A stretch of 63,674 bases of DNA, counting the filler, from Reticulomyxa filosa (Eukaryota; Protista; Foraminifera), in the NCBI GenBank assembly GCA_000512085.1. It is 21 parts of 21 records of this genome, joined end to end, with 100 filler letters (N's around TTAATTAATTAA, not from the genome) between each part and the next. Parts side by side here need not be neighbours in the genome. Positions count along the whole stretch, not along the records: positions 36,075 to 39,055 come from ASPP01003278.1; 20 more parts are not named here. One strand, 5' to 3'. The position numbers and the translations under genes are program-made. Positions 4,929 through 50,834 of this stretch are shown piece after piece (position 1 is the first letter of the stretch; every line of letters begins with the position of its first letter). Under the pieces are notes generated by a model. It did not search any database, was not told the origin of the DNA, and saw only the letters and a program-made list of their open reading frames with translations.

Positions 4929-6074
4929 TCATTTTAAGAACATATTGGATTTTTTCAGCTGAATATTGTTTGATTCCTTCATACAATCGCCACAATATCT
5001 CATTTTTGAATTTTCAACATACAGCAAGCCGTACACTTTTCCAGCCAATTTTGATCTGTAGCAACAAAACGTGAGCCATGTCATTTCAAGCAAAGAGTTG
5101 ACAAATATTGAAAAGAAACACACCCGCAATTGTCGCATGTAAAACACGACAAATGAAATTGTTCTCCATTGGCATTTTGGATGCCCCTTCCAAAAATTTT
5201 TTCTTTACATTTCCAACAAGTCCCAGGTATGAGTTGAAGGTTTCCATGATCGACATTTGCAGCGGCGCTCGAACTTTGGCTATTTTGTAATTGACTTATC
5301 AAGTCTGCCATTTTATTGTTCTCTTCTTCGATTTTTTTGATTTCCTCGTCGTTGTGTTTTTTGGTGCAATCAGCACAATAGTAAACTAATTTCCCATCGT
5401 TGTCTTTGCGCGTTCCAAATTTTTTTCCAATTAGTCCTTTCCTAACATTGCACATACAAAGGAAAACTGGTAATGTTGGCGTTTCAAAAAAAAAAAAAAA
5501 ACTGGTCTGTTCTTGTGTACATTTAAAAAATAAATAAATAAGTAAATAACTGGCACAAGTCACACGCAAAGCATTTGTGATGATATAGCCCTCCTGTAAA
5601 CGCTTCAAATGCCCTGGATTTGATTATCTCACAGCATTTCTCACAATATCGAACGCCCTCCTATGATCCGCAAAAACCAACAATCAGTACACACAATACC
5701 GTTTCAAAACTTGACATTTCCTTTACATGTGTGAGAACAAAGGCTATCTGTTCAACTTTTTTGCTGTGATCATGTTTGTCTCTAGCTCCTCGTCTGTAAA
5801 ATGACAACTCTTCGCGTAGACAAGCAACTTCCTTTTTCAATAGTTCGACTTCCTGAACATTCATCGAACAACTCATATTTTGGCCGCTCCTTTATTTAGT
5901 TTTTTTTTTTTTTTAAAATTATATATATATATAAACTTCTTTCAATGCAACAGGATCGGTGGTGGACTCAGTTTGATCTTTCACTTGCTCACTCTGCTGT
6001 TGAACGGGTCCTTTTTGTTCTTCAATGGAATCCTAAGATGTATGATGGACGAATTTATTTATTATTATTTATTA

Positions 6075-6774: not shown

Positions 6775-6853
6775 GTTTGGACGATCTTTCTCACTTTTTG
6801 TTTATTTTTGTCACACACACACACACACACACGCACATACACAATGTGTTTGA

Positions 6854-6897
<44 letters not shown>

Positions 6898-36074: not shown

Positions 36075-36803
36075 TTTCTCTTTTTTCTCGTTTCCATTCT
36101 CTTTCCCTTTCACATTCTCTCTCTTGTTGTCTTTCTCTGTTGTTTCTTTGCTTTGTCTTTCACGCTGAATAAATTCGAATTCATTATCACGAGAGTATTG
36201 TCTAAGTTCTTCTTTGTCTCCACCAACTAGTTCATAGCGAGGAAGATAACGATTTCGAATATCCGGATGATGTGAGCCAAGACTGCGAGAATGTTCAAAT
36301 GAGACTTGACTGCTTCCCCTTCGAACAAGTGTTTGATGATGATGATGACGATGATGATAATGATAATTATCAACTTCTTTTCCTGGTCTCAAAGCAGGGC
36401 CAACAGTAGAGACAGATATCGACTTTGCTTGCACATTAGCACTCGATCGGAGCTCATCCACAAAATGAGCATATTTGCAACGTGCGCCAAACTTGCATGA
36501 TCCTGTTCGTTGAAAGTCGACACAATATGAGGTTTTGTATAATGGATGACGACTCACATCATTGAGTCTGGATAACTCATTTCGAGGCAAATTGGAACGA
36601 TGTTCTACAGCAATAGAGTGTCTTTGTCAGCAGGATACTCAAATTTTTCATTTCGCATTTTTTCTTGGACATGACGAACTTTCAATTTATCTTCATATTC
36701 ATCTTCATATTTATTTCGATATTCATTTTCATTTGGATATCGATATTGATAATAATAATGATCTTTATCTTTGTAATTATCCTATTTTATAATAAATAAA
36801 TAA

Positions 36804-36841
<38 letters not shown>

Positions 36842-37527
36842 TTATTATTATAAAATACTTTTTTTTTACAACACCTGAGTTTCATAGCTCTGTGGAAGGT
36901 CGTCAATGGGACGATTGGTGGGATAATGGTGAATGGGTTCTTTATCTTTTCCACTCGTATATTCGCGACTCCTGCTTTCTTCAATCAAAGCACGTCTTTC
37001 TTCGTAGTTACGCATGTCACTTCGAACCACGTTTTCCTTTTTTTAAAAAAAAAAACATTATGTTTATTAAAATTTCATTATAACAAATTTAAAAAAAAAA
37101 TTGTGTATTTTTGCTAGTATACTTCATAATGGTCAATTTGTCTCGATTGATAATCATCACTAGGATAGTGTATGTAAACGTGATTATTGCCATGAATTGA
37201 TCCTTGTCGTGGAGATACAACTACACTTTTATGTGGCAACTGACGATATTCTATGCTTTTTGACGTAAGTTGCGCATGTTGGGATGAATAGACTGGATAT
37301 ACAGCATTCACATTCTCTCCTGTTGGCATACCGTGTGAAACATAAGTGTCCGAATATCCGTGATTGGATGCATTTTCCGTTGTTACTGTGTTCGTTTGAG
37401 GTAATGCACCACGTGAACTTGTCTCATACACTCTTAATCGTTTGGACTGAGGTTCCAGTGGATATGCAGCATATTCTTCAGCAATATCATCATATGGATA
37501 ATGCCTCTTTCTGAGATTTGAATGCAT
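36075..37527 (-). CDS. CCCH zinc-finger RNA-binding protein (TIS11-type finger), multi-exon, 3'-partial
   Basis: LYKTSYCVDFQRTGSCKFGARCKYAHFVDELR (C-x8-C-x5-C-x3-H with a YKT lead-in). Confidence 0.75.
36783..36857. repeat. 75-nt AT palindrome filling most of a 93-nt intron
   Basis: TATTTTATAATAA...(TA)n...TTATTATAAAATA, within minus-strand intron 36874-36782. Confidence 0.9.
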
Positions 37528-38345
37528 TTTCAAACAGTAAAGTCTTTGGTTCTCAAGAAAAAAACAGAACAACTCAATTATTTTTCAATAATCAACAAAA
37601 ATTATATTCAAAGAAAATAGACAACTTTGCAAAAACATTAAAAATATCTTATTGAAAAAAAAGTTTCTTTTAATAAAAAAACAACTTTATAACCGACCAA
37701 TCAAATCCGTTTTGATAAAGTTTTCATAAAAAACGTTCAATCAATTTCAATAAATAAAAATAAAACAAAAAAAATCTTTCTTGTCCACGGGAGTATATGC
37801 TATTGATTTATTTTCAATCATTACTCCAAATATCACTGTTGTTGCTATTGATGATTACAGCGTAAAACGTCATGACGATGTAAAATTAGTGAATTAATTT
37901 TCAAATTTAAATAGTAATAACAGTGCAAAACAAATTTAAAAAAGAAATAAAAGTTAGCTGTTTTGAAACGGTGTCAATTCTTGTTTTTTGTTGTACTAAT
38001 TTTCATCAATTATATGAAAAATTTCAAGATTTTGATTAATGCTATAATTTGATATGACTTAAAAACAATCGATTTTATTTTTCGTTTAATATGAATGACT
38101 TTTTGCAAATTTTTTGATGAAAGATTTATTTGTTGAGTATTCTCTCATTAGAATTGAGACATACAGACCAAAGTTATAGAATAATGCAACAACAGTGATA
38201 AATAGTCTACATTAGGTTATATTACGTCCCACTTCTTACATGCAATTAATGTAACGAAGACAATCCAAACGAACAGACTGTTTTTACAACCAAAACTGAA
38301 CGAGTTTTTTGGTTTCACCTTTTCCAAGGGGAGCATTAAAAAAAA

Positions 38346-46162: not shown

Positions 46163-46272
46163 NNNNNNNNNNNNNNNNNNNNNNNNNNNNNNNNNNNNNN
46201 NNNNNNTTAATTAATTAANNNNNNNNNNNNNNNNNNNNNNNNNNNNNNNNNNNNNNNNNNNNAAAAAAAAAA

Positions 46273-46342
46273 CAAACAAACTAATTAACGAAATACATAT
46301 ATAAATAAATTTATATATGTATTTCGTTAATTAGTTTGTTTG
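46273..46342. repeat. Perfect 34-bp inverted repeat (intronic)
   Basis: CAAACAAACTAATTAACGAAATACATATATAAAT-aa-ATTTATATATGTATTTCGTTAATTAGTTTGTTTG. Confidence 0.97.
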
Positions 46343-46432
46343 GTTTTTGTTTAAATTATATAACTAAAAATGTGTGTGGATATTTCTTTTTTTCCTCTTT
46401 CCCCCCCCTCCCCCCCCTTTTTTTTTTTGAAG

Positions 46433-49314: not shown

Positions 49315-50834
49315 ATGGTAAAATTACCCAAAACAATATCTCTCTTTTTTCATGCATTAGAACAATACTTGCCCCATTTTTTTTCCCCCTCATAGCAAGT
49401 AAAAAAAAAAAAGGATGACACAAACGAAATAGCGTTTAACAGTGTTAAGTGGTCATAACAAGCCAATAAGTCAACTGAAACTCAACCGAGATGGAGACCT
49501 GTTGTTTGTGTCGAGTTTGGGAGCAGGTGGTGCAACGGAGCCGTTGTTAACAGTGTGGGACCCATTGTCAGGTGAGTGGTTGGGTTCGTTTGAAGGGCAC
49601 AGTGGTGCAGTGACGGACTTGGACGTGGATTTGAAGAGCCAGTATTTGATTAGTTCGAGCAACGACTCGACGGTGAAGATTTGGGATGTGAACAACGGCA
49701 AGGCGTTGTACACCTTCAATTTCACCGCGCAATGTCGCACTGTCTCGTGGAGCAGCGATATGCGCTTCTTTGTCACAGCAACACGTCCCTTTGGTGGAAA
49801 AGGCGCTCAAATACATATCGGAGAAAATCCTATTTTGGAAGGAGCTGACAAAGTCGATGAAGGAGGTTAAATAAATAAATAAATAAATAAATATATATAT
49901 ATACATATATATATATATATGTTTATTTATTTAATTTGTTGATAATGTTATTACTTGTTATTATTATTATTTAAAAGACTCGAAAGAGACAGAAAGAGAT
50001 GCGAAAAGTATGAAAGCGACGATAGACTTTAATGAAAACACCGGCGTACAGAGCACACGTGTCCTATGGTCTCCATTGGACGAACAGGTGTTCACTTGTT
50101 GCACTGATGGCACCATTCGCGTGTTCGACGTGACGAAACAGAAGGAAATCAAGAGCGTCGTGTTCGATCCCAAGTTCAGCGAAAAGTCCAAACTCGCTGA
50201 TGAAATTTCGCCAAGTCTTACCGACATGAAGTACGTCAATAATCACTCCGCTGTCATCATCTCCTCGCGAAATAAAGAAGCCAAAGTTTATTGTTTATTT
50301 TTTTAAAAAAAACAACTAATAATAATAATAATAATAATATATATACATATATGTATATATTTATTTATTATTATTATTATTACTTTTGCTAAACAAAACG
50401 AACGAATGAATGAATGAATAAATGAAAACCAATAAACGAATGAATAGGTATTTGATATTGAAAAATGGGATGTCATCAGAACATATTCAACAGATCGACC
50501 ATTGAATACAGTGGCGGTTCATCCGACCGCAAATGTGGTTGCTTTGGGAGGAGGTCAACAAGCGCAACAAGCCGCTCTAAGTGACCGAGAGGGGTTGTAC
50601 GAATGCTTGTTTCATCATCTGATTTTTGAAGAACGAATCGGTCTCATCCCTTGTGTTGAAAAGGAGGTCTTTTCTCCTTTAAATGCCATGTCTTTCTCTC
50701 CTGATGGCAATATCTTTGCCCTAGGCTATGAGCAAGGGCAGGTCTGCGTTTATCAAATGGATGATAGCTTTCAAAATACTGTTCAACAGATTGAAAAAAG
50801 ATTCATTACTGAAGAAGAGGAAGAAGAGCTTTAA
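49315..50834 (+). CDS. EIF3I: Eukaryotic translation initiation factor 3 subunit I
   Basis: Exons 49315-49317, 49433-49865, 49978-50285 and 50448-50834 give MRLTVLSGHNKPISQLKLNRDGDLLF..GHSGAV..DRPLN..LGGGQQA..FHHLIFEERIG..FSPLN. Confidence 0.9.

Follow-up and report, generated by a model that had tools for sequence, protein, structure and literature searches.

A 93-nt intron in a zinc-finger gene of the foraminiferan Reticulomyxa filosa is almost filled by an A/T palindrome that is real and striking. With moderate confidence, we read it as an ordinary GT-AG intron whose palindrome arose by fold-back copying around a central (AT)15 run and whose stem the spliceosome would open and tolerate but not need. 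Taken alone, this intron is extreme but has precedents among animals and fungi, in which hairpins that end at the acceptor and introns with internal symmetry are known. The class to which it belongs matters more. In the window, that is, the whole 63,674-nt stretch of DNA analyzed here, nearly all self-complementary microsatellites are held by introns and not by intergenic DNA, and these introns are without branch or pyrimidine signals.

The host gene and the splice junction

The window consists of 21 short contigs chained with N spacers, and the intron lies on the minus strand of a 2,981-base contig, ASPP01003278.1 (36,075 to 39,055). According to frame views and a public protein, exon 1 (37123 to 37527, minus strand, as are all parts of the gene) runs for 135 codons from an ATG. 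It is followed by intron 1 (37037 to 37122; 86 nt), which has a T run and an A run ahead of its AG and was only weakly folded in the fold statistics (z +1.8). Exon 2 (36875 to 37036; 54 codons), identified from its frame, a homolog search and the public protein, is flanked by two phase-0 junctions. Next comes the hairpin intron, intron 2 (36782 to 36874; 93 nt, GT-AG, phase 0, 5% G+C), placed by frame logic and by the same join in the public protein. In the frame views, exon 3 (36608 to 36781) provides a 58-codon open frame and then shifts to the frame of a single CCCH zinc finger of the TIS11/tristetraprolin type (36465 to 36539; Pfam PF00642, E 3e-09).

The initial annotation had proposed a minus-strand intron of 93 nt at this place, with a CAG|GT donor and an AG acceptor, and the gene structure agreed with it in every respect. 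The donor follows CAG at 36874, the acceptor AG ends at 36782, both flanking exons are in phase 0, and joining this donor to this acceptor restores the frame of the zinc-finger gene, as for a GT-AG intron. When the intron is read through unspliced, a stop is met at the third codon. Of the three frames downstream, only the one that begins at 36781 is free of stops, over 58 codons, and from a phase-0 donor the acceptor ending at 36782 is the only one that opens it. Internal AG and the cryptic GT at 36858 were considered as splice sites and ruled out, since each keeps an in-frame stop. A search with exon 2 led to the public R. filosa protein RFI_03511 (100% identity), which joins exons 2 and 3 exactly at the predicted intron. 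RFI_03511 is an automated annotation in which a doubtful 41-nt intron (36608 to 36568) serves to repair a frame shift further along the gene, and its support for the junction is weak. Judged from the sequence, the 93-nt intron is probably real and is likely an ordinary GT-AG intron.

The frame shift itself lies at 36629 to 36605 (minus strand). The change would be accounted for if a single base had been missed in a short A run, and an alternative is a 17-nt GT-AG intron at 36638 to 36622 containing CTGAC. Frame shifts at single-base runs were also seen in conserved genes at about 1780, 19676 and 21050, where they are consistent with sequencing errors.

The best solved relatives of the zinc finger include ZFP36L2/BRF2 (E 5e-14) and tristetraprolin (E 9e-13). 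In proteins of the TIS11/tristetraprolin family, as described, a lead-in of the form (R/K)Y(K/R)T(E/K)L precedes each of two C8C5C3H fingers arranged in tandem (PMC3616968). A single finger, not a tandem pair, was found in the sequenced part of the gene, which is cut by the contig end, and its lead-in matches this motif in part; by its sequence, the host protein resembles the single-finger type. When exon 2 and the finger exon were used as queries for homologs, RFI_03511 itself was the only protein returned, and no ortholog was found. Upstream of the gene, perfect 15-base inverted repeats (37831 to 37845 and 38186 to 38200) with TA at their outer ends surround about 370 bases. This element (37831 to 38200) looks like a miniature transposon, of which the window contains no further copy.

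The predicted hairpin

In the predicted fold of the intron, nt 18 to 92 (36857 to 36783) are paired, and nt 1 to 17 and the last G are unpaired. A near-perfect AT palindrome at 36783 to 36857 whose last paired base is the A of the AG had been described initially, together with about 17 unpaired nt between donor and acceptor; the predicted fold gave the same palindrome and left a 17-nt tail and the last G free. Comparison of the fold energy with dinucleotide shuffles, a check put forward in the initial annotation, bore out the strength of the structure: the energy was -25.3 kcal/mol (z -5.17), none of 200 shuffles was as stable, and the stem was the strongest among the 42 introns marked in the window. 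At 20°C, the predicted energy was -37.2 kcal/mol. All 36 Watson-Crick pairs of the stem are A-U, and they are interrupted by a single U-U mismatch and a single bulge. The opposite strand folded equally well (-24.8 kcal/mol).

Four segments can be distinguished along the minus strand. The unpaired 5' tail (36858 to 36874; 17 nt) contains the donor, an A9 run and a final AG whose G overlaps the cryptic GT at the stem foot. The A-rich 5' arm (36838 to 36857; 20 nt) matches the end of the 3' arm perfectly over its outer 13 nt. The central alternating (AT)15 run (36808 to 36837) is self-complementary and is the likely seed of the palindrome, and these 30 nt on their own folded to only -8.4 kcal/mol. 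The U-rich 3' arm (36783 to 36807; 25 nt), in which a motif search found UUAUUUAUU nonamers (three in the intron), has the A of the acceptor AG as its last base. The stem score was 31, a value reached by none of 150 block shuffles at each block size (4, 8 and 12 nt). Because shuffles that keep the local repeats never reach this score, the symmetry is real and exceeds the AT run. One fold computed with flanking sequence paired the acceptor with upstream exon sequence, weakly.

We also looked for branch-like motifs. Neither CTRAY nor YTRAY occurs in the intron, and nt 1 to 17, 5' of the stem, contain no YTNAY, TRAY or CTNA match. Four weak YUNAY matches are found in the 3' arm, at -27, -23, -19 and -15, and every branch-like match of the intron is buried in the predicted stem.

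That the junction is unused, or that the palindrome is partly an assembly artefact, perhaps in a pseudogene, seems to us very improbable. What backs the join is frame logic plus an automated annotation with a doubtful intron elsewhere, and the assembly does have single-base run errors (the Sec7/BIG and WD40 frame shifts), which make the run lengths in the stem uncertain. However, unique coding sequence continues in frame on both sides, the arms of the palindrome are imperfect copies and do not mirror each other, and the acceptor is the sole one to open the 58-codon frame from the phase-0 donor.

The geometry of the predicted fold also recalls 5'-tailed mirtrons and structured splicing-derived RNAs, in which the 3' end of the hairpin is the acceptor AG, the 5' tail is unpaired and the 3' overhang is short (PMC10508058). 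Hairpins ending at the acceptor, often with a 1-nt overhang, are reported there as the commonest mammalian mirtron class, spliced, when 5' tailed, by the normal machinery (PMC10508058). Here, the hairpin likewise ends at the acceptor, and a 5' tail, a 75-nt hairpin and a 1-nt 3' overhang are predicted. The likeness is one of predicted geometry, and unlike in those mirtrons, the stem is made of A and U only. Such a low-complexity product would be unlikely to serve as a specific guide, and an Rfam scan near the hairpin gave nothing near the gathering score, with three chance hits. A source of hairpin RNA that is processed to small RNAs after splicing is the least credible of the roles considered, with a very slight probability.

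Stems and repeats in introns and in intergenic DNA

For comparison, 42 introns of the window were marked by hand from three-frame views, 34 of them frame-consistent and 8 uncertain. The set is incomplete, and about six ambiguous candidates (near 5699, 8126, 28260, 34216, 54355 and 56914) were excluded before counting. Many introns from an automatic gene finder were implausible and were dropped; only its first Sec7/BIG intron was kept. A homolog alignment spans the join in 9 of the 16 class-A introns of the Sec7/BIG gene. The gene labels Sec7, kinase, helicase, PPR and RuvB come from this analysis, and the labels LIM, eIF3i, FANCM-like, AP-3 sigma and RNF213-like, used in intron marking, are tentative and based on motifs. 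All counts rest on this one window.

Fold z scores were below -2 in 10 of the 42 introns and below -3 in 7. Stems with a score of at least 12 were called long and those with a score of at least 15 strong. Long stems were present in 11 introns, with the 93-nt intron at the top of the list. Only 18 nt of it lie outside the stem, compared with 40 to 127 nt in the other 10 long-stem introns. With the least free sequence, it makes a fair test case and the best single substrate. The repeat units of the arms vary from intron to intron (AAAT/ATTT, AAT/ATT or T run/A run), and a search of the whole window for the 5' arm, allowing up to 2 mismatches, found only its own copy. The stems therefore seem to have arisen locally and independently of each other. 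We considered whether the palindrome came from a transposon or introner, an origin that is unsupported within the window, where no second copy of the arm exists. Repeat units are shared with the 93-nt intron by the intron at 49866 to 49977, and half-swaps among the long-stem introns scored at most 30. The 49866 to 49977 intron is 84% paired, and its second hairpin stops 3 bases short of the intron end; it and its neighbor at 50286 to 50447 (both plus strand) have a common build of A-rich arm, AT core and T-rich arm.

The abundance of repeats differed strongly between introns and a hand-picked intergenic set (G+C, 23% and 28%, respectively). Runs of (AT)4 or longer numbered 22 in 4,538 intron nt versus 1 in 17,215 intergenic nt, about 80 times denser in introns. 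Strong stems were found in 8 of the 42 introns versus none of 146 intergenic tiles (p 4e-06), and the class-A introns of Sec7/BIG alone gave 3 of 16 versus none of 146 (p 0.0008). A palindrome scan of the whole window found 17, of which 10 lie within marked introns and 3 are intergenic, and 4, by eye, are in introns cut by contig ends or beside exons and belong to neither set, so that the contrast shrinks if those 4 were intergenic. The flanks of 25 alternating runs matched each other more than permuted flanks did (p 0.0055; 0.013 without the 93-nt intron). About 4 of the 25 runs drive this self-matching, which fits occasional one-step inversions. The 3' flanks of the runs are T rich (257 T, 168 A) and the 5' flanks balanced, a strand-linked pattern. 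A metagenome scan with a Sec7/BIG exon gave three distant loci (32 to 43% identity), which have no (AT)4+ runs and are unusable as relatives. The confinement of repeats to introns may reflect transcription-linked mutation, or introns may be recognised by their repeat content.

Does structure define splicing?

The initial annotation had seen in this intron the clearest case of structure-defined splicing, with no free branch point or pyrimidine tract near the 3' end. The geometry stood up, with 18 nt left free and all branch-like matches inside the stem; the tests of signals, position and strand did not support the interpretation. CTRAY was found in none of the 42 introns. The pyrimidine fraction at -20 to -4 was 0.51, versus 0.53 in the intron body, and was at least 0.7 in only 6 of 42. 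Position -4 was A in 29 of 42, and donor position +3 was T in 23 of 42, which makes for weak donors. Because the pyrimidine tract and branch consensus are missing generally, hairpin or not, their lack does not single out the 93-nt intron; the absence of 3' signals characterizes the organism rather than the 93-nt intron.

The end of the stem at the acceptor had been taken as a sign of a role in splicing. However, only 1 of 11 long stems ends at the AG, versus 0.46 expected (probability of at least one, 0.38), and this coincidence is not beyond chance. The long stems end 1, 12, 17, 23, 39, 44, 44, 45, 52, 65 and 93 nt from the 3' end, and the mean share of free sequence lying 3' of the stem is 0.54; with ends so scattered, there is no positional bias to either intron end. 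Sense and antisense folding did not differ (Wilcoxon p 0.77 for z and 0.42 for energy; n=42), as a DNA-symmetric process predicts. This comparison thus gave no sign of selection on the RNA strand, at a low power given that the stems are almost purely A-U. The stem of the 93-nt intron holds no G-U pair able to tell the strands apart, and the mismatches of all stems (3 G-T, i.e., G-U, 1 A-C and 5 others) are too few to weigh. Structure-defined splicing at the 93-nt intron is possible but not favored, at a low probability, and the strong enrichment of stems in introns keeps a functional role possible.

A broader form of this idea is that the stem sets the acceptor beside the donor and replaces the weak branch and pyrimidine signals, the 93-nt intron being the extreme of a lineage-wide class. 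This, too, we consider unlikely. The enrichment of self-complementary repeats and stems in introns, seen also in the Sec7/BIG introns alone, speaks for it, as do the 42 introns without branch or pyrimidine signal and with weak donors. Yet 31 of the 42 introns have no long stem and signals that are equally weak, the stems are unlinked to intron ends, and the sense strand has no advantage. Stem-bearing introns are longer (median, 118 versus 98 nt; p 0.04), as such a role would have it, but more stems are expected in longer introns regardless.

The precedent is the zebrafish (AC)m-(GT)n bridged introns, in which mutation and rescue are reported to show that the stem, not U2AF2, is required (PMC4691745). 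In these introns, the pairing predicted between complementary repeats takes up most of a short intron, conceals the branch and pyrimidine signals and draws the two ends close to each other (PMC4691745), as in the fold predicted here. The repeats of the 93-nt intron likewise lie within about 40 nt of both ends (at nt 18 and at the A of the AG). They differ in being A/T units instead of AC/GT and in being joined via a self-complementary core. Moreover, the 11 long stems of the window are scattered, with 1 at an acceptor, and in this small sample are not enriched at intron ends as the zebrafish stems are. Zipper and downstream stems of yeast also shorten the distance between splice signals within the intron (bioRxiv 10.1101/2022.07.22.501175). 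There, as described, the branch point is free, whereas here the branch-like matches are all in the stem and none lies 5' of it in nt 1 to 17, so the yeast layout, with the stem between branch and acceptor, is not reproduced; this counts against structure-assisted splicing.

The type of the host finger raises a regulatory possibility. The stem would hide the acceptor and slow splicing, and the intron would be retained until the stem is opened by heat, by a helicase or by a protein that binds AU-rich elements, possibly the gene's own TIS11-type product acting on the UUAUUUAUU repeats. The three nonamers are the maximum among the 42 introns, a retained intron would bring in the stop at the third codon, and a trypanosome single-finger protein is reported to bind AUU and UAUU repeats (PMC3616968). 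Against this, the nonamer occurs in 5 of the 42 introns, 4 of them in unrelated genes, the sequenced part of the gene has one finger only and lacks the end of the gene, and the reading frame is interrupted downstream. We consider such a switch improbable.

A probably tolerated fold-back palindrome

Our preferred explanation remains an ordinary intron with a tolerated palindrome, for which we infer the mutational origin, the opening of the stem, the position of the branch and the use of the junction. Introns would fill with simple repeats, and self-complementary AT runs would occasionally seed fold-back copying (template switching). The resulting palindromes would be tolerated wherever located, and here one would fill the intron up to the acceptor. 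The standard spliceosome would open the U-rich 3' arm, in which the branch adenosine would lie, and would gain access to it either by unwinding the stem or before the stem has formed; excision would release a 5'-tailed hairpin RNA. Template switching is reported to create perfect hairpins in one event (PMC10710096). Like the near-perfect inverted repeats so formed, which are tolerated in introns, the palindrome here is nearly perfect; unlike them, where ancestral alignments show the origin (PMC10710096), it comes from a gene for which no ortholog was found.

Symmetrical introns of Hypoxylon (about 93 nt) offer a further parallel, and their symmetry is described as unnecessary for excision (PMC8469720). 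Like these Hypoxylaceae sister introns, the intron of R. filosa measures about 93 nt, has arms that meet at a central palindrome and is predicted to form a whole-intron hairpin. The fungal introns, however, are a multiplying family of similar sequence with canonical branch sites (PMC8469720), whereas the 93-nt intron is made of microsatellites and is present in a single copy in the window.

Three points go against a purely neutral reading. First, outside introns, palindromes and (AT)n runs are almost lacking, so a neutral DNA process needs an added cause, which may be, for example, transcription-linked mutation or selection for repeats in introns. Second, the last base of the palindrome is precisely the A of the AG. 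Third, every branch-like match is buried in a strong predicted stem (-37 kcal/mol at 20°C), which the neutral reading must assume to be opened.

It is doubtful, but would be of wider consequence, that in R. filosa, and perhaps in Foraminifera as a whole, the place of branch and pyrimidine-tract signals is taken by self-complementary A/T and purine-pyrimidine microsatellites that mark the introns, with splicing set by repeat content and structure. If this is true, the repeats would fold introns down, and the 93-nt intron would become an effective intron of 18 nt, the size of the tiny rhizarian introns; those of mikrocytids are reported to have 16 to 17 bases (PMC10245619). Rhizarian genomes are described as rich in simple repeats, with a mean intron length of 87 bases in R. 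filosa, and the accessible text of that study draws no link between repeats and introns (PMC13746701). Our literature search, with most subscription papers outside its scope, found nothing on palindromic or repeat-marked introns in Foraminifera, which is not proof of novelty. Should the pattern hold genome-wide, one could ask directly whether, in an entire lineage, repeats and structure take the place of the usual 3' signals; to date, this has been shown for a minority of introns in fish. Such a pattern would also help to explain assembly breaks inside introns and poor gene models.

Other features of the window

Many contig ends are A, T or CA runs beside exons (e.g., 6897, 13078, 18140, 46263 and 55140), suggesting that repeat-filled introns break the assembly. 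On its gene's minus strand, the segment at 6812 to 6887 has a CA run and then a GT run, in the order of zebrafish bridged introns, within what is probably an intron truncated at a contig end. No palindrome in the window is longer than that at 46263 to 46352, which has 44-base arms and a nonrepetitive, perfect core of about 25 pairs and lies where a contig begins, with a kinase exon downstream of it. It is probably intronic and a good candidate for a single fold-back, although a contig-end artefact is possible. A contig of higher G+C with an intron-free RuvB gene (16933 to 18039) is likely bacterial contamination of the assembly. Finally, a TPR-like segment (PF00515) is inserted in the Sec7/BIG gene at 21049 to 21405 (plus strand); it is also present in the relative P0006 and may be a lineage-specific domain.
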